Assembly: GCA_040285745.1 (NCBI GenBank)
Contig: JAUFOR010000002.1
Location: 124,001-188,000, forward strand
DNA length: 64,000 nt
Source: Barthelona sp. PCE
Taxonomy: Eukaryota
Direction of reading: 5' to 3'
Shown: positions 19,167-33,109 of the stretch, piece after piece
Layout: every line of letters starts with the position of its first letter
Position numbering within the stretch: position 1 is the stretch's first letter
Translations under genes and position numbers: made by a program
The notes under the pieces: model-generated
What the model was told of the DNA's origin: nothing
The model's database searches: none
What the model saw: only the letters and a program-made list of their open reading frames with translations

Positions 19167-20795
19167 ATGTCAGAAATCGTTCAAAGGCAGTTGGAAAGTT
19201 GTCTTCCAGAACTGCAAGAGTACCTAGAAAAAGAACTATTCACAAAAAACGAAATTTCCAAGATTTTGGATCGCAGAAGGCATTTTGAGTATCTTTTATT
19301 AAAGAGAACGCCTGAGGTATCTGATTTTCTCGAATACATTCAATACGAAAGTGCCTTAAAACTGCTCAAGGACGCACGCAAAAAGGAGAAGTCCGTTACA
19401 AAGTTAAACAATGACCATTTCCTCACTCAACGTGTGCAAATGCTCTTTAACCGGGCTGCTAACCGGTTTCCTGGGGATTTAAAGCTTTGGAATCAGTATT
19501 TAACAACCTTAATCAAGGATAACTCAGTTAAGCAACTCAATGGTGTTCTTGCCCGTGCAATCGCACTGCATCCACGCGAGCCCATGTTCTGGAAACTTGG
19601 AGCTGAGGTTTCTGTCGCTAACGGTGACTTCGATGCTGCTAGAAATCTTTTGCTGAGGTCATTATCAGGAAATAACGACTGCAACGATCTGTGGGCTGCA
19701 TATGCAGGCTTTGAAGTTAGCTATCTGGAGTTTCTGAGGTCAACTGGAGTGCTTAAAGTGTACCCTGGTGACAGTGATGAGCAAAAGGAATCGAAAACGA
19801 ATTTGGCTGCTGGAACTACCCTCCTAACTGTTTTAGATGGTGCTTTGGAGGCAGGAGTATCACAGGAGTGTCTCCGTCAGATCATTAAGAAAATTGAGAA
19901 AAAAATGGATACTGAGCTACTGCCCCAGGTATATGGATGTCTTGACATGGAAGATGACAAGAATGTCATGTTCTACTGGTCACATCAGCTGAGAATAAGG
20001 GTGGATTCAGCAGAAGAAACGATACTGATGCTGGTTTCGCTCGATGTTGAAGAGAAAGTGAGGTTCACAATGGTAATATGCGACATTCTCCTCATGCTGC
20101 ACGAGCAGCTAGAAGACGTGACCGCTGCCGTTTCACACTTTTTTGAACTTTGGAAAGAGGAAAAGGTGTGGGAGATCCACCAAGATGATTTGTTTTACAA
20201 GACTATGTACGCTCTTGTTGCTGCAATCCCATTCTCTGAGCCTGTCTACGCATTCTACATGGCTGTGATCACAGAAAACATTGTCAATGAGTACGTTTTC
20301 TCAGCTTTATATGTTATGAATGCAGAGATCGACTATCTCGATGTCTTACAGGAGGGAAAGTCAACCGTTCTCTTTGATCTTATGCTGAAGGACGACACAC
20401 GCGGTGTATCCGATGCAATCGACGTGTTGCGCGTCTTGAGTGAATCCGTCATCCACCGTAACACCAAAGAGAAATTTGTTATGACTTTCTTCTCGTTACC
20501 TCACATAATCAATGACCTCACAATCGATCATGTATACACGGTGCTATCACTTTTTGCTTTTGAGCCCAATATTATTGACTGCACTTTCCCTTTATACAGA
20601 ACACTTTTCACAACAGATCACCTGTTTGCGCTTCTTAAGCGCATCACAAAACGTTCGAATAACTACATGGTATGGTCCGTCTTTATCAAGTTAGTCGAAG
20701 AGCAAGGATCCCTAAAAGAATTCAACCATTGGCTTGAAATTGCCCGTCAGGAGGTTGATGATAACATAAAGTTTATCAGAGAGCTACAGAAGTAA
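19167..20795 (+). CDS. UTP6: U3 snoRNP/SSU processome protein Utp6 (HAT repeats)
   Basis: MSEIVQRQLESCLPELQEYLEKELFTKNEISKILDRRRHFEY...DFLEYIQYE; LFNRAANRFPGDLKLW. Confidence 0.9.
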   Translation: MSEIVQRQLESCLPELQEYLEKELFTKNEISKILDRRRHFEYLLLKRTPEVSDFLEYIQYESALKLLKDARKKEKSVTKLNNDHFLTQRVQMLFNRAANRFPGDLKLWNQYLTTLIKDNSVKQLNGVLARAIALHPREPMFWKLGAEVSVANGDFDAARNLLLRSLSGNNDCNDLWAAYAGFEVSYLEFLRSTGVLKVYPGDSDEQKESKTNLAAGTTLLTVLDGALEAGVSQECLRQIIKKIEKKMDTELLPQVYGCLDMEDDKNVMFYWSHQLRIRVDSAEETILMLVSLDVEEKVRFTMVICDILLMLHEQLEDVTAAVSHFFELWKEEKVWEIHQDDLFYKTMYALVAAIPFSEPVYAFYMAVITENIVNEYVFSALYVMNAEIDYLDVLQEGKSTVLFDLMLKDDTRGVSDAIDVLRVLSESVIHRNTKEKFVMTFFSLPHIINDLTIDHVYTVLSLFAFEPNIIDCTFPLYRTLFTTDHLFALLKRITKRSNNYMVWSVFIKLVEEQGSLKEFNHWLEIARQEVDDNIKFIRELQK

Positions 20796-21676: not shown

Positions 21677-23014
21677 TTAGTATTCGAAATCATCTTCCTC
21701 CTCTTCGTACTCGCCTTCCTCCTCAGCAACGGCATCCTGGTACTGTTGGTATTCAGCAACAAGATCGTTCATGTTGGACTCAGCCTCGGTGAACTCCATC
21801 TCGTCCATACCCTCACCAGTGTACCAGTGAAGGAATGCCTTACGACGGAACATCTTGGTGAACTGATCGTGGACACGCTTGAAGAGCTCCTGGATACAGG
21901 TGGAGTTACCAATGAAGGTAACACCCATCTTAAGACCCTTAGGAGGAATGTCACAAATGGAAGACTTGATGTTGTTGGGAATCCACTCAACGAAGTAAGA
22001 AGAGTTCTTGTTCTGGATGTTAAGCATCTGCTCATCAACCTCCTTGGAGGACATACGACCACGGAAGAGGGCGGAACAGGTCAAGTAACGACCGTGACGA
22101 GGATCAGAGGCAGCCATCATGTTACCAGAGTGGAACATCTGAGAAGTGAGCTCGGGAACAGTGATCTGACGGTAGGCAGAAGAACCACGAGAAGTGAGGG
22201 GAGCGAAACCAACCATGAAGAAGTGAAGACGAGGATAAGGAACCAAGTTAACAGCGAGCTTACGGAGATCGGAGTTGAGCTGACCGGGGAAACGGAGACA
22301 GCAAGTAACACCGGACATAACGATGGAAACGAGGTGGTTGAGGTCACCATAGGTAGGGGTGGTGAGCTTAAGGGTACGGAAACAAATATCGTAAAGAGCT
22401 TCGTTATCGATACACATGGTCTCTTCGGAGTTCTCAGTAAGCTGGTGAACAGAAAGAGTACAGTTATAAGGCTCAACGACGGTATCAGAAACCTTGGGGG
22501 AAGGAACGACGGAGAAAGTACACATTTGACGATCGGGATACTCCTCACGGATCTTGGCAATGAGGAGGGTACCCATACCGGCACCAGTACCACCACCGAG
22601 AGAGTGACAGATCTGGAAACCCTGAAGGCAGTCACAAGACTCAGCCTCCTTACGGACGATATCGAGGACGGAGTCAATGAGCTCAGCACCCTCGGTATAG
22701 TGACCCTTGGCCCAGTTGTTACCGGCACCGGTCTGACCGAAGATAAAGTTATCAGGACGGAAGAGATGGCCATAAGCGTTACCACGAATGGAATCCATAG
22801 TACCAGGCTCAAGATCAACTAAAACGGCACGGGGGACATACTTGCCACCGGCAGCTTCGTTGAAGTAAACGTTGATACGCTCCAATTGGAGGTCGGATTG
22901 ACCCTGGTAAGAACCAGTGGGATCAACACCATGCTCATCAGCAATGGTCTCCCAGAACTTGCTACCGATCTGGTTACCGCACTGGCCTGCTTGAATGTGG
23001 ACGATTTCACGCAT
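21677..23014 (-). CDS. TUBB: Beta-tubulin
   Basis: [24 protein letters not shown] and an acidic tail; strong codon bias. Confidence 0.99.
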
Positions 23015-23551
23015 TTAAAAAATGTATCTAAAAGTTAGAAAACCTTTTGGGCACAAAGCACCGCGCCTACGTGCACAACGCTGTTAGAGCGCTGAGCATG
23101 TACTTTGCGGAGCTTTTCTATGGTTGATCATACACAATAAGGATGAAAAAGGAAATTCAAGTTTTTAAAATTTTGAACTCATTCGATGCGATTGGTGACC
23201 TTCTTAGGTGTCAAAAGACCCCAAACATAGGTCTTTTTGACCCATACTCCTCAGGAAACTGAAAAAGCTTTTTTTTATCATCACTTTTACAATGAATCAG
23301 TGTGCTAGACCATAACAAAGCAGTGTAAGATATGCTATCTTGCTTGTGTGATGATGGATGCCTTTAATTCGACCCTTTTCTCATACCTGCCTATGCAATT
23401 CAAAATCTTTACATCTTACGGTATATTCATTGTGTTACATCGTGCACACACTTAGTTGCCAAACAAATAGGAGCATTGAATACGTGCAATCCGTAGAACC
23501 CGACTAATACAACGGTGCGCACTTTGTGCCCGCTTGCAGTGAGTATAAGCA

Positions 23552-24274
23552 GTCACAAGTCGCCAAACGGGCATCTAGTGGGTAAGTCCAGCAGACAAAT
23601 TTACACAAAAGCAAAGAAGCACAGCGAAAAAATTATGGTTAAATAAAAACTATCATATAAACCTACTACCTGCCGGTCTCGACAATGCACCGCACAATAG
23701 GCGGCAGCAAAGTCGAGAGAGGCTCGGTCATCAACGTAGCACAAGTCTACAAAACTTCACGAACGGCAGCAGGTTAGTGGAATCATCTAGTCTTAACGTT
23801 ATGTCTCTTTCGAGAACGATAGATCAAAACTAACTAAAGAAATGATCCTATAGAGCATAGTCGTAATAAAAGAAAATGCAAGGTCTTCTACTCTTTCGCG
23901 CACTGTCCGCACCTTCACGCAGATGTACTGTTACGTTTATTGTTGTATGTGGTGTCCGTTATCCATTGAGAAGGCCGTGCGTGCTTTTTTTAGGATCCAA
24001 CCATGAGGCCATCTGTGGTGGCACATACACTCTGCTTTGGCGTTTCAATGTGTGTTTATGCTGACTTCAAGCGAGATATACCACCTTTGAGGCTAAGAAA
24101 TTCCGTTAAAGATTCAGTTGGATTTTGTGGTCTATTTCGCTTGAATGTCCTTAAGAATGATGTGTGGTGTGTTTTTATGGATCTTTTCGGAATAAGGCAT
24201 CATATTATTTCGCTATGAAGTCTTAACTCTACTATATGAGAAGTATGTTGAACTTTGTTATTTGATCAAATTTA
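23552..24274. repeat. Left arm of a 723-bp perfect inverted repeat
   Basis: Base-by-base reverse complement of 25739-26461 with no mismatch or indel found. Mirrored ORFs in the track all sum to 50013. Confidence 0.97.
23648..23864 (-). ncRNA. U3: U3 snoRNA, copy 1
   Basis: Identical inverted copy of 26149-26365. Confidence 0.88.
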
Positions 24275-24953
24275 ACCGGCGTTGTTTATTTCTCGTTTTA
24301 TCCATATTTAGAACAACGCATCTGGTTCACAGAGGATAATTGTACACTTTAGTGTTGCAGAATGGAGTTTGTTTGTTTTGAAATGATTTTTTCTTTCAAT
24401 ATTTGTTGATAAGGTTACCTGATGCATGATTCATTCAGTTCTCATGAGAACAGTGGTACGTTGTAGAAGTTCAATTGTCATAGTATTTATGAAAGTAGAG
24501 TGATGTATTGCTTTGAAAATGCTTGTATTTGTTACTCTTACCTTTTACATTTTTTTTTGGCTTAGTTATGGGGCTTTATTACGAAATATGCCACGCTTTA
24601 AGGAAAATATTGCGGGAAACTTTACATTACAACCTCTTATTAGATATTGCACAGTCAGTAGCACTTCTGTTAAACACAAGAAAGGTGTGTATTATTGGGA
24701 GACTACAGGATTCGTTCACAGCTGGTCCAACTGCATGGGAAGATGATAAGACTGTTCTATGCTGCTGAGATTAACTATGTTAAAATCTAACGTGTTTTAC
24801 TTTATGACTCATATCCGGCCAGATGTGGGATGTAACAGGCTGGAATTGAACTATTTGAATTATTGATAGGAGATTACGTTTTTAGAGTTAATGTTTTCTT
24901 AATTACATTTCATAAGATTTCATAGTTGCCTGTGTGGAAAACAGAAAAATTTT

Positions 24954-25167
24954 GATTTATACTGAAGTGGGTTTATTGACGTCGGGGGAACGCTCACATG
25001 GGAAGGCTCGCCTTCACGCGTGGAGTGTGTTTCGTCCTGGAATTGGCTCAATATCCCCTTTTTTTTCAAAAAGGGAAGACAAAACTATGTAGGGTTCCAA
25101 GAACACCATCCACACAAGAAGGTTCGCTTCGTCCCCCTCCGCTGTTTACTACCTCAAGTATAAAGTC
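24954..25167 (-). ncRNA. Unidentified rod-like structured RNA candidate (about 215 nt)
   Basis: Nested stems on the minus strand with many G-U pairs, tandem G-A pairs and a GAAA tetraloop tip. A T5 run follows just downstream. Confidence 0.55.
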
Positions 25168-25738
25168 TGAAGGCTAGCGCATATATGTCACCGTTGGATA
25201 TTATGTTGAGAGAGAATTATCATAAAGATGGAAAAATAGTCTTGTTGACTTTAATACTCAGTTGTGGAATGTGATATATATCCTGGTATTGGTGTGTTTG
25301 GTGGATTTACTTTCATTGCATTGAAGAAAGAAGGAGCTATGTATTATTTTCGGATAGTGATGGCATTTGATGAAGTGAAGATATGCTACACATTGAAAAT
25401 TGTTCAAGTAGTTGTTGTTGTACGGTTTTAGACTTCAAAGAATGATCACAGTGGACGATGAATATGGATAACAATTTTAAACTTTTTGATCAAAAATGGT
25501 ATTACTTCCTTATTCATGCAGTCAGAGACCCGAAGTAAGACCCGTGGACTTGATTTTGCATAACACGCTTGTTTAACACACTAGTTCGTAGCAGTAAATT
25601 TGCCTGTTGAGAGTGCAAAGGATACTCCCTCATTCAGCTTTTCTTCTTTTTCGCATATTTTTTAAAAAAGAGGCAATGGAACAGTTCACAGGGCAAACTC
25701 AGCACTCGGTGCAGCTCGCTGCTTTGGATAGGTTCATG

Positions 25739-26461
25739 TAAATTTGATCAAATAACAAAGTTCAACATACTTCTCATATAGTAGAGTTAAGACTTCATAG
25801 CGAAATAATATGATGCCTTATTCCGAAAAGATCCATAAAAACACACCACACATCATTCTTAAGGACATTCAAGCGAAATAGACCACAAAATCCAACTGAA
25901 TCTTTAACGGAATTTCTTAGCCTCAAAGGTGGTATATCTCGCTTGAAGTCAGCATAAACACACATTGAAACGCCAAAGCAGAGTGTATGTGCCACCACAG
26001 ATGGCCTCATGGTTGGATCCTAAAAAAAGCACGCACGGCCTTCTCAATGGATAACGGACACCACATACAACAATAAACGTAACAGTACATCTGCGTGAAG
26101 GTGCGGACAGTGCGCGAAAGAGTAGAAGACCTTGCATTTTCTTTTATTACGACTATGCTCTATAGGATCATTTCTTTAGTTAGTTTTGATCTATCGTTCT
26201 CGAAAGAGACATAACGTTAAGACTAGATGATTCCACTAACCTGCTGCCGTTCGTGAAGTTTTGTAGACTTGTGCTACGTTGATGACCGAGCCTCTCTCGA
26301 CTTTGCTGCCGCCTATTGTGCGGTGCATTGTCGAGACCGGCAGGTAGTAGGTTTATATGATAGTTTTTATTTAACCATAATTTTTTCGCTGTGCTTCTTT
26401 GCTTTTGTGTAAATTTGTCTGCTGGACTTACCCACTAGATGCCCGTTTGGCGACTTGTGAC
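25739..26461. repeat. Right arm of the 723-bp perfect inverted repeat
   Basis: Reverse complement of 23552-24274; the unique spacer is 24275-25738 (1464 bp). Confidence 0.97.
26149..26365 (+). ncRNA. U3: U3 snoRNA, copy 2
   Basis: 5' ACGACTATGCTCTATAGGATCATTTCTTTAG (GAC/box A'/box A), box C' GATGA (26226), box B CGTGAAG, box C TTGATGACCG and box D variant ATGA (26357). Terminal stem GACTA/TAGTT and an 11-bp stem AACCTGCTGCC/GGTAGTAGGTT; about 217 nt. Confidence 0.9.
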
Positions 26462-26510
26462 AGTTTAAGATCTTTTTGCTTAATCACTAGGAGGTATACC
26501 CATTTTTTAT

Positions 26511-28880
26511 TTACAAAGCGCTGTACTTTCTCAGCAGCATCTTTTGTTTGGAACACATGTTTATCACATTGTCTAACTCATCCTCCAATTTAGCAATTTC
26601 TCTTCTGACGCGAATAGTTTGGTGTTGTCTACGTTTCTTATTCAAATCGTTATTGACTCGATCTTTCTCAAGTTGCCACTTCAACAGCTCTTTTTCGATT
26701 CTTTCAATCTGAATCTCTCCCTGAGTAACCGTGTTATCAGCAAAAATCTGTCGTGAGGGGCTCTGCTGTTGTGTAATCGTAATTGACGATACATGTTTTT
26801 GTACTTTCGGTGATCCTGGTTCAGGGAATAGGTTAGATTGCATCTCTTTCTGATGCATTTGCTGATTGTAACTCATCTGCTGTTGTTGCCCGACTCCGGC
26901 CTTCTTCCTCCTCATAAATTCTTCGAAAGACATTGGAGGTGGGGGTTTGTTCGGATCGTTACCAATAGATGAGTACATCTTCATCATCGCGTTATGTCCG
27001 CGCTTCATCTTATCTTCGAATTCCTTCTTCTTTGCGAGTAATGCTGCGCTTGCATTGGTATATTTGGGTTGAGCTGGTTGTGACTGCTGCGGGTTTATAT
27101 ATCCATTTTCTTGATGAGTGTGACCCTGCTGCTCATATTGAGTCTGTTGAGCTTGGATTCGTCGCTGTTGCTCATACATTCTTTCCCTATGTGCGGCAGC
27201 CTGTCTTTGCTCTTCCATCTGTCTCTCCAAGTCTTGTACACGCTTCTGCTCATTGGAGAGCATTTGCTCATATCTGTTAACGTACGTCTCAAACTTTGAC
27301 TCCATCGTACGCTGCAATTCTTCGAGCCTATCCGGCTCATCTCTTTGTAACTGAACAGGTTTCGCTGCCTGTTGCGGCTGCTTCACAGGTGTCCGCTCCA
27401 TCACAACTGGTTGACGCGGTTCAGCATTGCGCTTCCTGGGAGAGTCAACGAATTGATTTTCCTCATTTCCGAGTGTAAAGTGGGACTGTTGGCGGGTCTT
27501 GTTGCCCTGGGCACGTGCATGGTGTTGCGTTGGGGAACGGTTTAGAGCATGCTTCGGTGCAAATGGGTCAACAGTGTCATTCTGGGAAAACGGTGCTCTT
27601 TTTTGTTGTTGTTGTTGGTTGCTCATTGAGTACTTCTGTTCATCAATAGTCCGCTGTAGGCTCTCGTTTTTCCGGCACAGACTTGAAACTTCGCTTTCAA
27701 GGGAATGTACTAGATTCTGTTTTTCCGAAATTTCTTTCTTCATCGTCTTTAGTGTGGTACTTAATTCGCGAACCTGTACCTCTGCATCCTGCTGCAGACG
27801 GAGTCTGTCTTTTGCCTGCTCCTTCAACTTGTTCGACTCCTTCTCAGACATGTTGAGCTCATTGCTCAATTGCAACACTTGCAGGCCAAGCTTCTCCTTC
27901 TCTTGTTTCAATATGCTCTGCTTTTTCTCCGCTTCCTTCATGTATGCATCCTGGTTGCCCTTAATACGAGCTATATCGGCCTCAAGCATGGTGTTTTTCT
28001 CCTTCATCTCTGTAACAGTTCTTCTGTGCGTGTTTTGCAAAGCGCTGAGCGCCACACGGGTGTCTTCCAACCGCTCCTGTAAGGATAGGTTCTCAACAGC
28101 AAGTTTATCATGGTTCTTTATCTTCTGCTGCTGATCATCTGTTAATCCCATCGGTAGCTCTATCTCCTTGCGTGATCCAATGAAAGAGCTTTGCTCCTTG
28201 CGAATAGGGCTCACCTCGACGTCCGAATGATGAACGGGGGATAACAACTTTATGGGAGAAATTTGTTTCTCTTTCAATGACTCGTTTCTTGCGATTTCTT
28301 CATCCGAGTCAGTCATATCAATGGGAACGCGCGTCATTGTCGGTCCCTTTTGCAACGGTCGCTGTTCTTGCAACATGTGTTGTGGCATGTATCGAGGATC
28401 ATAAGCCAGCTGAGGATTCATCTGAGGATTCATCTGAGGATTCATCTGCGGTGGAGGGTAATAGTACATGGGGAACGGCTGAGGGGCGCCATAATACATC
28501 TGTTGCGGCATTCCGTGAGGCTGTGTTGGCTGGTGAACGTGGTTTGATTGGAGAGGTGTTTTCTTTGCAAATACTTCCCTGCGAGGTGTAGGATTTTTAC
28601 GGACAGGTGACTCGAATTCCGACTCGTGGTTCATGATAGGATCAGGAAGAGAGAGATCTGTGTCTTCATTCATCAATGCCTCTTGTAAAAACTTGTTTCT
28701 TCGTGACACAACCCGTCTCATTTCGTCTGTATCAGTTGTTTGCGAGGGGGCATACTCTGAGAACACAGGGCTAGGCTGTGCGGTCCCACAAAGCAGCGAG
28801 TAAAGATCATTTGATGCAGACTCTTCTTTCTGCGAATTGTTGTACCCCAATGCGCTCATCCTTTGTGATATGTCAGTCAT
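26511..28880 (-). CDS. Gln-rich coiled-coil protein with an MPHOSPH9-like C-terminal domain (centriole/basal body candidate)
   Basis: C-terminal IERIEKELLKWQLEKDRVNNDLNK...TIRVRREIAKLEDELDNV...LLRKYSAL; short MNPQ tandem repeat at about 28408-28448. Confidence 0.55.
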   Translation of the reverse strand: MTDISQRMSALGYNNSQKEESASNDLYSLLCGTAQPSPVFSEYAPSQTTDTDEMRRVVSRRNKFLQEALMNEDTDLSLPDPIMNHESEFESPVRKNPTPRREVFAKKTPLQSNHVHQPTQPHGMPQQMYYGAPQPFPMYYYPPPQMNPQMNPQMNPQLAYDPRYMPQHMLQEQRPLQKGPTMTRVPIDMTDSDEEIARNESLKEKQISPIKLLSPVHHSDVEVSPIRKEQSSFIGSRKEIELPMGLTDDQQQKIKNHDKLAVENLSLQERLEDTRVALSALQNTHRRTVTEMKEKNTMLEADIARIKGNQDAYMKEAEKKQSILKQEKEKLGLQVLQLSNELNMSEKESNKLKEQAKDRLRLQQDAEVQVRELSTTLKTMKKEISEKQNLVHSLESEVSSLCRKNESLQRTIDEQKYSMSNQQQQQKRAPFSQNDTVDPFAPKHALNRSPTQHHARAQGNKTRQQSHFTLGNEENQFVDSPRKRNAEPRQPVVMERTPVKQPQQAAKPVQLQRDEPDRLEELQRTMESKFETYVNRYEQMLSNEQKRVQDLERQMEEQRQAAAHRERMYEQQRRIQAQQTQYEQQGHTHQENGYINPQQSQPAQPKYTNASAALLAKKKEFEDKMKRGHNAMMKMYSSIGNDPNKPPPPMSFEEFMRRKKAGVGQQQQMSYNQQMHQKEMQSNLFPEPGSPKVQKHVSSITITQQQSPSRQIFADNTVTQGEIQIERIEKELLKWQLEKDRVNNDLNKKRRQHQTIRVRREIAKLEDELDNVINMCSKQKMLLRKYSAL

Positions 28881-29932: not shown

Positions 29933-32900
29933 CTATGTTTGCCACACAATCTCTTCAATTACACCTTCAAGTGTCCTGTTCATGAGTGCAATGAGCTGTG
30001 AGATGGAAAATACACAGTATCTCTGTTCTCCTTCTTTCTTAGGCTTCGATTCTTCCATATCATGCAAAAATGTCACACCTCTGTAGTTGTCAACCTTCGA
30101 CTCCTGAAGCTTGAACGCGTCGGGTCTCAGAACGACGCCAATCTCCGTGTAGTCCATGTTGGGGAAGAGCAAACAAACACCTTCAGTTTTTGCCTGTAAT
30201 TCGTCATACAATTCCTTGAGGGGGTTAACAACAAAGATTGCGTTGTTGTACTCTGAATGTGTCTTTGCCAGTGATAAATTAGCGTACTTCTGCTTTTGCT
30301 GCTTTGAATTCTTGCTGAAAATATCGCTACATTTGATCGTAAAGTTGAATCGTTGTCTCTCCTCCTCTTCTGAAACTGGAGCACCAAGGAACTGTTCATA
30401 GCGGCGCTCGGGCAGCTTATTCAACCGGTTGAGTGTGTATCTAGCCATTGTCACGACGAGTTGAAGCGAGTACTGATCTACGCCATTATTCCACAGAGTG
30501 CCATCAGCATCGTACGCGGTGATGATGCGGATACACTCCTCCTTCTTGGAAGCCTTGGAGAAAGATGAGACGTGGATGATGTTTTCAAGAGAAATGTCTG
30601 AAAAAGAGGGAACCAGCATTGTGTTAGGTGTGGTTACGCTGAGTTCAGATACAAATCGGAATGCGTGATTCACAAGCGCGCTGGTATTACACGTACGATA
30701 CCCGAGGGCGAATGCGCTGGCAACGGCACCGCAGAACAGCAATTCTATAAACTCTGATCGGAACGGGAGCATCTTAGCGACTGCCCAAGCTCTAAAGAGA
30801 CGGAAAGCGCGCAGAACGCCCTTGTTGTTGGGATGCAGATAGTTCTTCACCATTGATACGTGGTGTTTCTTTGCATAGTAGAACTGATCAAAAACTATAC
30901 GTGTGGGTGTACCCATGTCATCTTCCTCCTTAAGGTAGATGGCACGTTGCGACGGAACGTAGATCTCAAACGACCAGACATAACCGCCAAAGACAACGAT
31001 AAGACGGTTTGTGGCTACGGCTGAGAAAAGAGACTTACCGTACTGCGGCAGCTTGCGGAGACCGGCGTGCATCTCAACGTAAAACCCAATCTTCAGCTGA
31101 TCGATCGCCACAGCATCCTCAGGCCAACCACCGCTATGTTCCAATGTCAGGAGGACGCGCTCTCCTTCATAGAAGCTGTGCTCATCGGCAGGGAGTGGTG
31201 TGTCGAAAAGAGGCGTTGGTTCCCTGATGTAACTCGATTTGTCAGACAATGAAGAGAAGTTGATAACGGTCAGTGGTAGCTCTAGTCCCTTGATTATGTC
31301 TGTGACTTCACCATACGCAGCGTCGAACGCAAAGTGGGGGTCCAGGTTCTCCTTTGCGGGTGCATCATTGACCTTGAGCGTGAATGCCAAGTCGAATTTG
31401 AACGATTCAACCTTCATCAGCAAAAGACGTTGGAATAGATAGCTTACGACAACGTACATACGCTCGACCAGCGACACTTTCTTAGGGAGTATGACGGTCT
31501 CGAGAATAGACCCGTCCTTGAATCTTCGAAGACCTGAGAGCTCACCCCAGAACTGATAGAACTCTCTTGCGGCAGCGGTCTTGGCTGTTGGTCCCTTTAG
31601 GACATAATCGAATCTGTAGTTATCGTTCAAGCGCAGCATCAATTGCAGGTCCTCACCCGGTACCGCTACAACTGCGTCGAACAATGGGAGAGAAGCGAGG
31701 ACGGATGCAAACTCCATCATGAAAAGCCAAGCGAACTCATCGACTGACTGGCATAGCAGTTGCTGAAGGGTGCCGTTCTCATACCACAAACCCATTGTTA
31801 GATCCTGGATAGAGAGACCAAAATCGCTGAGAGTCATTTTGTAGTCGAAGTGGTCCGAAACGGTTTTCTTCTTATGGAAGAGTGCGTTGAAGCAGTCAAC
31901 AACGACGCCTTCTTCGTATTGGAGCATGGCATACATGTCGGAAAAGAGCATCTTAAGTATTGATACAAACGACAGTGGCATGTACCTCAGGACATTCAGT
32001 CCATCAACAATAAATATGCCAACGTTCCTCTCCTCAAACAGGGAGTACTCGGCGAGAGCCTGCTTCTCAAAGCGCTTCTTTTGCATCTTTGACATAACCT
32101 TACTGTTGATAATGACCAAATTGGTTATTCCGTCCTTGAAATGAGAAAGGAAAACACGAAGCAGCTGGAAACTGCTCATATGGTTGAAGATAAGACTGTT
32201 TTTGAAGAGATATAACCACAAAACGTTGGTGTCAAATTTGAATGTCTCCAAGAAATACTTCTTTGAGAGACCATGGTTCGTCAGCAACAGGTCAAGGAGA
32301 ACCATACCCTGTGATACGTTGGGCACGGTCTCAAACATAACCAAAAAGTCATCGCGAAGTGAATCACGAATACCGAGTTCAATTAAGCTTTGATTGTAGT
32401 AGATTGAAGGGACTGGATCACATTCCACGGGCTCAGGGAGCTTTTCAGGATGGATGTTGCACCTCTGAAGGGAAACAATATCTTCTGAGAATTGGTTGTC
32501 CAGGCAAGGGTTGATCCGCAGTTGAATGCGTTTCTCAATCTTTGGCAGCACAATAGATACCATGACAGAAGCTTCCTCTGTATCTACGTCGTCAACCCAC
32601 TCGAGATTAATCATTTGTGAAGCCAGGTGTGTTTGGAGTGCCGTGATTACGTCTGTGATGAGGTTGTTACGTACCTTGAAGCTACCCACGAGTTCGAAAG
32701 GGTACACTGCAAGGAGGTCTACAACGAAAACATCATCTTTCGCATTGAATGCTGTGAAAAGGTAGTCACCATATGTGACAATTTTGGGGCGTTCAAAGCG
32801 AATTCTACGATGATCCTTATCATGGTTGATGAAGGAGAGACCGTTCTCGATCTGATCGCGAATAGTAAACTCTGTAGCTTCCAGAGAATTGATGAATTGA

Positions 32901-33109
32901 AAAAACTGATGCTTTAAGAAGTTTGCAATTCCACTGTATACTTGTTTGGGGACAATTGAGTCTTCCAGGAGGCCCTCTACGAGACGTTTCATGACGAAAC
33001 CCGAATATAGAAGCTTAGCCGACTGGATCTCCTGCAGCTCTTCCAGTGTCGGTAAGTCTTTATCGTGAAGCTTCGTTCTCTGGGCCTTTAATGGTGGTGA
33101 GTTTGGCAT
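29933..33109 (-). CDS. UTP22: Utp22/NOL6 (Nrap) SSU processome protein
   Basis: KGPTAKTAAAREFYQFWGELSGLRRFKDGSILETV and LEHSGGWPEDAVAIDQLKIGF. Start taken at ATG 33109. Confidence 0.9.
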   Translation of the reverse strand: MPNSPPLKAQRTKLHDKDLPTLEELQEIQSAKLLYSGFVMKRLVEGLLEDSIVPKQVYSGIANFLKHQFFQFINSLEATEFTIRDQIENGLSFINHDKDHRRIRFERPKIVTYGDYLFTAFNAKDDVFVVDLLAVYPFELVGSFKVRNNLITDVITALQTHLASQMINLEWVDDVDTEEASVMVSIVLPKIEKRIQLRINPCLDNQFSEDIVSLQRCNIHPEKLPEPVECDPVPSIYYNQSLIELGIRDSLRDDFLVMFETVPNVSQGMVLLDLLLTNHGLSKKYFLETFKFDTNVLWLYLFKNSLIFNHMSSFQLLRVFLSHFKDGITNLVIINSKVMSKMQKKRFEKQALAEYSLFEERNVGIFIVDGLNVLRYMPLSFVSILKMLFSDMYAMLQYEEGVVVDCFNALFHKKKTVSDHFDYKMTLSDFGLSIQDLTMGLWYENGTLQQLLCQSVDEFAWLFMMEFASVLASLPLFDAVVAVPGEDLQLMLRLNDNYRFDYVLKGPTAKTAAAREFYQFWGELSGLRRFKDGSILETVILPKKVSLVERMYVVVSYLFQRLLLMKVESFKFDLAFTLKVNDAPAKENLDPHFAFDAAYGEVTDIIKGLELPLTVINFSSLSDKSSYIREPTPLFDTPLPADEHSFYEGERVLLTLEHSGGWPEDAVAIDQLKIGFYVEMHAGLRKLPQYGKSLFSAVATNRLIVVFGGYVWSFEIYVPSQRAIYLKEEDDMGTPTRIVFDQFYYAKKHHVSMVKNYLHPNNKGVLRAFRLFRAWAVAKMLPFRSEFIELLFCGAVASAFALGYRTCNTSALVNHAFRFVSELSVTTPNTMLVPSFSDISLENIIHVSSFSKASKKEECIRIITAYDADGTLWNNGVDQYSLQLVVTMARYTLNRLNKLPERRYEQFLGAPVSEEEERQRFNFTIKCSDIFSKNSKQQKQKYANLSLAKTHSEYNNAIFVVNPLKELYDELQAKTEGVCLLFPNMDYTEIGVVLRPDAFKLQESKVDNYRGVTFLHDMEESKPKKEGEQRYCVFSISQLIALMNRTLEGVIEEIVWQT

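Follow-up and report, generated by a model that had tools for sequence, protein, structure and literature searches.

The locus studied here raises the question of how two identical copies of a predicted U3 snoRNA gene came to lie in opposite orientation within one small gap between protein genes, and of what keeps them identical. The locus is part of a 64-kb stretch (the window, C2:124,001-188,000) of the genome of Barthelona, which we take to be a free-living metamonad and kin of Giardia's group. The genome comprises 10.2 Mb in 8 contigs, and the window is rich in genes, most of which lack introns and some of which have flagellar domains. The reading preferred here, to which we give a probability of roughly 0.6 from the sequence pattern, is that the second gene is an inverted duplicate that would raise U3 dosage and is probably kept identical by conversion.

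Inverted arms with predicted U3 genes

The left arm (23552..24274) and the right arm (25739..26461) are exact reverse complements over 723 bp, or over 729 bp if two mismatches are allowed, and enclose a spacer of 1,464 bp (24275..25738). This exact complementarity bears out the initial annotation, which had described two 723-bp identical inverted arms around 1,464 bp; the remaining 12 inverted pairs of the window are 25-35 nt long, at 71-81% identity. Within each arm, the U3 gene is preceded by 410 bp and followed by 95 bp, close to the approximately 410 and 96 bp given before. The arms lie in a gap of 3,496 bp (23015-26510) that is, as had been claimed, the largest in the window without an open-reading frame of at least 120 aa, and that is also the largest of this kind across the scanned part of contig C2 (584 kb). 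On the left, the gap is bounded by a beta-tubulin gene (21677..23014, minus strand), the product of which is identical to a protein (P0029) labelled as Barthelona by its source, and part of the gap is beta-tubulin promoter, since the 150-250 bp upstream of this gene is similar to that of two other genomic copies. On the right lies a 789-aa ORF without a Pfam match (26511..28880, minus strand), the stop of which is 49 bp from the end of the right arm.

Past the arm ends, homology was not above that of shuffled sequence in any of seven comparisons, and the edges are sharp. No target-site duplication of at least 4 bp was present within 8 bp of the arm ends, and no further genomic copies of the arms, including their 410-bp upstream part, were found. 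These results bear on the possibility that U3 was captured by a DNA transposon with long terminal inverted repeats, which would be in keeping with two hAT-like remnants 100 kb away on C2 (arms of 131-158 bp, interiors of 1.2-1.3 kb). The hAT-like remnants have 8-bp target duplications, indicating that the search could have seen one, whereas none of at least 4 bp was seen at the U3 arms. Given also that the arms have no other copy and that the spacer has no transposase-sized ORF (longest, 75 aa), capture by a transposon is extremely improbable.

The U3 genes were located with the Rfam models Plant_U3 and RF00012 at 23647..23864 (left copy, minus strand) and 26149..26366 (right copy, plus strand), facing outward with their 5′ ends 2,284 bp apart. 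Both matches are full-length, with an E-value of 1.7e-7 and 36.9 bits for Plant_U3 (cut-off, 80 bits) and an E-value of 1.5e-4 and 31 bits for RF00012 (cut-off, 34 bits), and an Rfam scan at gathering level gave no match. A genome search with RF00012, in which 43 of 105 candidates were scored, returned these two places only. In the right copy, the Plant_U3 alignment and pairing with 18S rRNA place box A' at nt 2-13 and box A at nt 15-22, and the alignment places box C' at 26226-26230, box B at 26249-26258, box C at 26279-26285, and box D at 26357-26360. Boxes C', B, C, and D occur in that order inside a 3′ two-hairpin domain, which folds with a z-score of -4.4. Box B, GUUCGUGAAG, and box D, AUGA, depart from the usual consensus. 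The earlier claim of a complete U3 in each arm thus holds for the order of the boxes and has to be qualified for the full-length matches, whose bit scores are below the cut-offs, and for boxes B and D, which deviate.

The main evidence that the genes are U3 is their pairing with the 18S rRNA of the same organism. Nucleotides 2-13 of U3 pair at 12 of 12 positions (G-U included) with 18S 1100-1111 at -18.9 kcal/mol, which is the best site for this segment in the whole 18S and was equalled by none of 300 shuffles, and nucleotides 15-22 form an 8-bp duplex with the 5′ end of the 18S. Boxes A' and A of yeast U3 are reported to pair with 18S likewise (10.1101/175547). Together, the Rfam alignments and the 18S pairing support the annotated arrangement of two outward-facing U3 genes within identical inverted arms. 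For pairing of the U3 hinges with sequence upstream of the 18S, in a test that used the rDNA upstream spacer as the likely location of the 5′ ETS, 45 and 216 of 300 shuffles did as well as the real sequence. Metagenome contigs searched with two U3 patterns yielded 0 stretches. The U3 of this locus is divergent, is missed by the Rfam cut-offs, and comes from a lineage that has been little sampled, a result of modest importance.

The 3′ end of the right U3 copy coincides with a run of five T (26364..26368, plus strand), which may be a Pol III terminator. Runs of at least five T follow 22 of 22 tRNAs in the fetched loci and also the 5S gene, and this likeness of gene ends makes transcription of U3 by Pol III plausible. 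Repeats of the two families present in the spacer are also enriched near tRNA genes, with solo retrotransposon units within 1.5 kb in 4 of 30 cases (0.32 expected) and copies of the second repeat within 1 kb in 5 of 35 cases (0.26 expected). This enrichment would fit Pol III for U3, although gene-free space alone may explain it. No upstream motif common to snRNA genes was apparent by eye, in a comparison in which U2 was found once and U6 was not found.

The upstream part of each arm also contains a stem-loop (25864..25950 in the right arm), seen in one of 37 windows folded outside U3 and the solo unit, with a z-score of approximately -3.4 for either strand. It has no Rfam match and is possibly a promoter element, a small RNA, or chance. 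A two-hairpin H/ACA RNA at 25860-26085 was considered and rejected, as its folding was no better than that of shuffles (z -1.7 and -1.3).

The spacer and the inner junction

The spacer had been annotated as unique and as containing an RNA; the first description has to be withdrawn, and the second is not supported. It has 37% GC and contains approximately 420 bp of debris from two repeat families (24957-25192 and 25564-25745), and the folded, RNA-like stretch (z -3.15, minus strand) is a solo retrotransposon end. An Rfam E-value scan of the spacer and the upstream part of the arm gave only matches with E of at least 3, and a scan of the same sequence for C/D motifs and rRNA complements gave no C/D box pair and rRNA complements no longer than 12 nt, none of them in a box context. 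Neither scan revealed an RNA gene in the spacer; the Rfam scans found no U5 in the locus, and no gene was found among the spacer ORFs.

The first repeat (24957..25192, minus strand), recognized by sequence matches, is a solo A-B unit from an older subfamily of a tyrosine-recombinase retrotransposon. It has 41 matches elsewhere in the genome (47 minus 3 to itself and 3 of the second repeat) and is 91% identical to its nearest copy and 86-87% identical to the ends of five full-length 6.1-kb copies. In all five of the fetched full-length loci, A1 is followed by 5.6 kb and then by B1 A2 B2, with A measuring 133-143 bp. Two frames, of 526 and 1,307 codons, occupy the interior of the one copy that was read, the longer of them with a reverse transcriptase match above the cut-off (PF00078, E 1.3e-14) and a weak phage-integrase (tyrosine recombinase) match below it (E 0.002). 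Judged by this layout, the spacer unit is the solo AB of a split-direct-repeat element of Ngaro-type organization, which may belong to Ngaro, PAT, or VIPER. The Ngaro element of Cafeteria is described as an approximately 6-kb A1-ORFs-B1A2B2 unit with RT and tyrosine recombinase and scattered solo AB units (PMC8547959). The Barthelona retrotransposon shares the layout, size, and solo AB leftovers given in that description and differs from it in that a single 1,307-codon frame of the copy read contains both the RT and the recombinase motifs.

The second interspersed repeat (25564..25745, plus strand), recognized by family comparison, is an old copy that lacks its last 14 bp. The family is approximately 235 bp long and has approximately 35 loci (43 matches minus 5 to a neighbouring repeat and 3 merged pieces), and the spacer copy is 73-82% identical to three other old copies. 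Aligned to one copy (L039), it continues in gap-free register as far as a 7-bp word with which the right arm begins (25739..25745, plus strand, from the repeat-copy alignment), and all 10 of the other copies shown extend approximately 14 bp past this word. That the repeat ends at this word when other copies are longer indicates that the right arm overwrote the end of the repeat at a microhomology.

These features suggest that the 723-bp block, U3 together with its 410 upstream and 95 downstream bp, was copied in reverse into the right site from the left one, and that the inner junction was formed at the 7-bp microhomology, perhaps by a template switch or by recombination repair. Based on the junction at the right arm, the left arm would be the donor and the right arm the recipient. 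Pairing between the near inverted copies, with repair of one from the other, would then keep the arms identical, and both predicted copies would supply U3 for 18S rRNA processing, with dosage and mutual back-up as the likely benefit. The spacer would be passive ground for transposon remnants, and flipping it would have little effect, as the 410 bp upstream of each gene belong to the arms. These features could also be produced by one recent inverted duplication, too young for divergence, with conversion unneeded. The sharp arm edges fit a single recent copy equally well and so count against the conversion reading; the clean microhomology junction also favors a recent event, as does the activity of rearrangement in a genome whose mobile elements are young (97-100% alike).

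Other inverted gene pairs in the genome

The matches from eleven gene-family searches were inspected visually for nearby hits on the opposite strand, and three more inverted pairs were found in two of the families, the other nine being without such a pair. Two further candidates that were fetched (C2:2078-2088 kb and C8:241-246 kb) contained no inverted pair. An H2B pair on C3 matches over 897 bp with one mismatch, encloses about eight genes, and has its copies 9.8 kb apart. A tRNA-Glu pair on C5 matches over 604 bp with one mismatch and encloses a 453-aa ORF; two insertions are present in one arm, with 98.7-100% identity around them. An H3 and phosphoesterase pair on C8 extends over 2.4 kb at 94% identity and encloses an actin-related gene and a UAA transporter. 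The copies of the H3 pair and those of the tRNA-Glu pair are separated by 3.7-3.8 kb. Paralogues dispersed in the genome resemble each other less than these pairs do (beta-tubulin coding sequence, 98.5-98.8%; a third H2B, 94%). The U3 pair is the sole inverted repeat of at least 300 bp in the scanned 584 of the 2,129 kb of C2, which, with nine of the 11 families lacking a pair, indicates that inverted pairs are uncommon in this genome.

In the C8 pair, only 4 of 135 differences fall in the inner 1,800 bp and 131 fall in the outer 575 bp, a part with 45 amino-acid differences, and the longest identical run is 854 bp compared to at most 200 bp in 5,000 permutations. This inner identity beside outer divergence indicates that the C8 pair is an old duplicate that was homogenised from the inside at least once, although the pattern could reflect one recent overwrite instead of ongoing conversion. 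A homogenised tract beside old divergence favors conversion over mere youth, and conversion at the U3 locus, we infer, gains support from this pair of the same genome. All four pairs are at or near 100% identity inside, one of them despite its 45 outer amino-acid differences, and the tRNA-Glu arms remain 98.7-100% alike around two insertions that only one arm has. Given these pairs, a single recent duplication without conversion appears doubtful as the full account of the U3 arms, though it deserves serious weight. Local homogenisation of inverted solo units on C8 was also considered and was rejected, as these units are 98% alike and no closer to each other than to other young copies.

The C8 pair also bears on the quality of the assembly. 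It contains one-base indels, one of which breaks the H3 frame, suggesting residual errors, and polishing may have erased a few differences between the U3 arms. An assembly or polishing artefact, in which one arm is false or true arm differences were polished away, is nevertheless very unlikely, as unique sequence lies on either side of each arm, repeats of 6 kb and rDNA units are resolved in the assembly, and the inner junction lies at a biologically sensible microhomology.

Comparison with known systems

In human, U3 genes at 17p11.2 lie in arms that are tens of kb long. They reportedly form a complex cluster with an inverted-repeat structure, according to the title of a 1997 study by Gao, Frey, and Matera. 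U3 lies in an inverted-repeat structure in both cases, as a 2.9-kb two-gene unit in Barthelona compared to a complex cluster in human. In mammalian sex-chromosome palindromes, arm identity above 99% over arms of more than 10 kb is attributed to conversion (PMC3723533, 10.1101/800185). Conversion was measured there from variants, whereas conversion in Barthelona would be read from a sequence pattern. Euglenozoan U3 genes are described as having their own promoters, as multi-copy in Euglena and of Pol III type in trypanosomatids, and as linked to tRNA or U5 genes, and that account reports no tandem U3 in Euglena (PMC2784804). Unlike the loci described there, the Barthelona U3 genes were found with no tRNA gene in the 64-kb window and no U5 alongside. 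A literature search covering mainly open-access papers found no report of a head-to-head U3 pair in a protist.

The initial annotation had also raised a possible dual role for the locus as an inverted-repeat centromere; in such a compact centromere, the U3 genes would be the boundaries and the spacer the core. The centromeres of Komagataella phaffii are described as having arms of 2.0-2.7 kb and 6-9 kb untranscribed, one per chromosome, bound by CenH3, with a core that inverts through arm recombination (PMC5010909). Barthelona resembles that description in its near-identical arms around a core of approximately 1 kb in a gene-dense genome, and the length and GC of the spacer are like those of Komagataella cores (PMC5010909). 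The locus holds the only inverted repeat of at least 300 bp and the largest ORF-free gap in the 584 of 2,129 kb of C2 scanned, the four inverted pairs lie on four contigs (chance 0.31; the contigs are perhaps not whole chromosomes), and two divergent H3-like ORFs in the genome (C1:1.20 Mb and C3:0.118 Mb) might be CenH3. The Barthelona arms, however, are 723 bp long and carry U3 within a 3.5-kb gap, compared to 2-kb arms and 6-9 kb untranscribed in Komagataella (PMC5010909). In addition, three of the four inverted pairs enclose ORFs, and larger ORF-free stretches with tandem arrays are present on C5 (a 295-bp array) and C8 (a 6.9-kb array of 420-bp units). These observations weaken the proposed dual role, and a minimal metamonad centromere with Pol III-type U3 boundary genes and a transposon-littered 1.5-kb core flipping by arm recombination is highly improbable. 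A centromere of this kind would be very compact and bounded by genes, but on balance the evidence points the other way.

For the preferred reading, that of an inverted U3 duplicate probably kept identical by conversion, the closest counterpart is in Giardia lamblia, for which 14 identical inverted vsp pairs, 2,190-3,847 bp apart, are described, arranged head to head or tail to tail, with flanks that are near-identical up to an abrupt end 139-729 bp out (PMC2996952). The U3 genes are likewise identical, inverted, and 2,284 bp apart, with flanks that end abruptly 410 bp out on the inside and 95 bp out on the outside, the latter below the range given for Giardia. The H3 and tRNA-Glu pairs, at 3.7-3.8 kb, fit the described vsp geometry as well. 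Unlike the vsp pairs of that account, the Barthelona pairs contain housekeeping RNA and histone genes instead of variant surface proteins, the H2B copies are 9.8 kb apart, and the C8 pair has old divergence beside a homogenised tract. The Giardia authors preferred recent duplication, which adds some weight to that explanation here, and termed the pairs a 'cryptic observation' (PMC2996952). On the sequence as it stands, the inverted U3 pair is a real case of an already known kind of inverted gene pair, and the vsp geometry recurs at housekeeping genes of another putative metamonad relative. It may be, at somewhat less than even odds, that metamonads share a process making and homogenising inverted gene pairs 2-4 kb apart. 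Such a shared process, if true, would explain the identical vsp pairs of Giardia.

Genes around the U3 pair

The two identical, outward-facing U3 snoRNA genes are flanked, three genes away on the left and right, by genes for Utp6 (window 19167-20795) and Utp22/Nrap (window 29933-33109), both of which are proteins of the U3 processome. This closeness may be due to chance; the window additionally holds RRN3 and a Nop2-like gene. A stem-loop was present ~200 bp upstream of each U3 gene, at window 25864-25950 and, in mirror position, 24063-24149.

rDNA, tRNA and small nuclear RNA genes

In the rDNA of contig C6 (locus L014), visual inspection showed a 5S rRNA gene on the same strand as 18S, ~1.0 kb upstream of where 18S begins. 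The first part of this contig carries 18S genes at a spacing of ~7.6 kb. Among 22 tRNA genes inspected by eye (loci L011, L014, L016, L022, L026, L041, L088, and L089), the majority are preceded by TTTCCG or a close variant within ~25 bp of the gene start, and this motif is possibly a lineage-specific Pol III element. The same inspection by eye gave no clear occurrence of a TTTCCG-type element at the U3 genes. U2 gave a single, divergent match of 51.7 bits (L041:1500-1673; C1:606049) with a divergent tRNA-Leu ~550 bp away, and U6 was not found at E 0.1.

Other inverted pairs, tandem arrays and contig ends

Inverted gene pairs were also found for H2B (C3:825079-836286; L085-L086), tRNA-Glu (C5:238528-243396; L084), and H3 plus a phosphoesterase (C8:2008984-2016443; L087). 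In the C8 pair, near-identity drops abruptly to ~75-80% within the phosphoesterase gene. A single-base indel in one of its H3 copies is possibly an error of the assembly. Elsewhere on C8, a 6.9-kb tandem array (C8:244213-251084; L089, L145) of 16.4 copies of a 420-bp unit at 98%, adjoined by a tRNA cluster, is a candidate centromere or satellite. A 9-bp tandem repeat, unit TATATGGTC, occurs at two contig ends (L053 on C4 and L056 on C8) and may be telomeric. The two ends of C2 (L044 and L090 versus L091 and L052) are inverted copies of each other, 98% over 6.6 kb.

Mobile elements and tRNA-associated repeats

Split-direct-repeat retrotransposons are present as five full-length copies of 6.1 kb (L015-L019), whose ends are nearly identical, at C1:46.6-52.7 kb, C1:502.6-508.7 kb, C1:899-905 kb, C2:1264.8-1270.9 kb, and C4:556.6-562.6 kb, besides ~25 more solo or partial units. 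In the one copy read, a single 1,307-codon frame carries both RT and tyrosine-recombinase motifs. Two remnants on C2 (250239-251783 and 261916-263460; L098, L099), which we take to be hAT-like from a C-terminal motif, have terminal inverted repeats of 131-158 bp and 8-bp target duplications. A third repeat, distinct from both repeats in the U3 spacer, has a unit of ~240-295 bp and, once 57 rows had been merged manually, was counted at 29 loci, including L084:7103-9766; on C5, it forms nine tandem copies. At 19 of the 29 loci, it follows a tRNA gene of the same strand at a distance of no more than 600 bp, a placement that resembles that of the retroelements targeted to tRNA genes in Dictyostelium.
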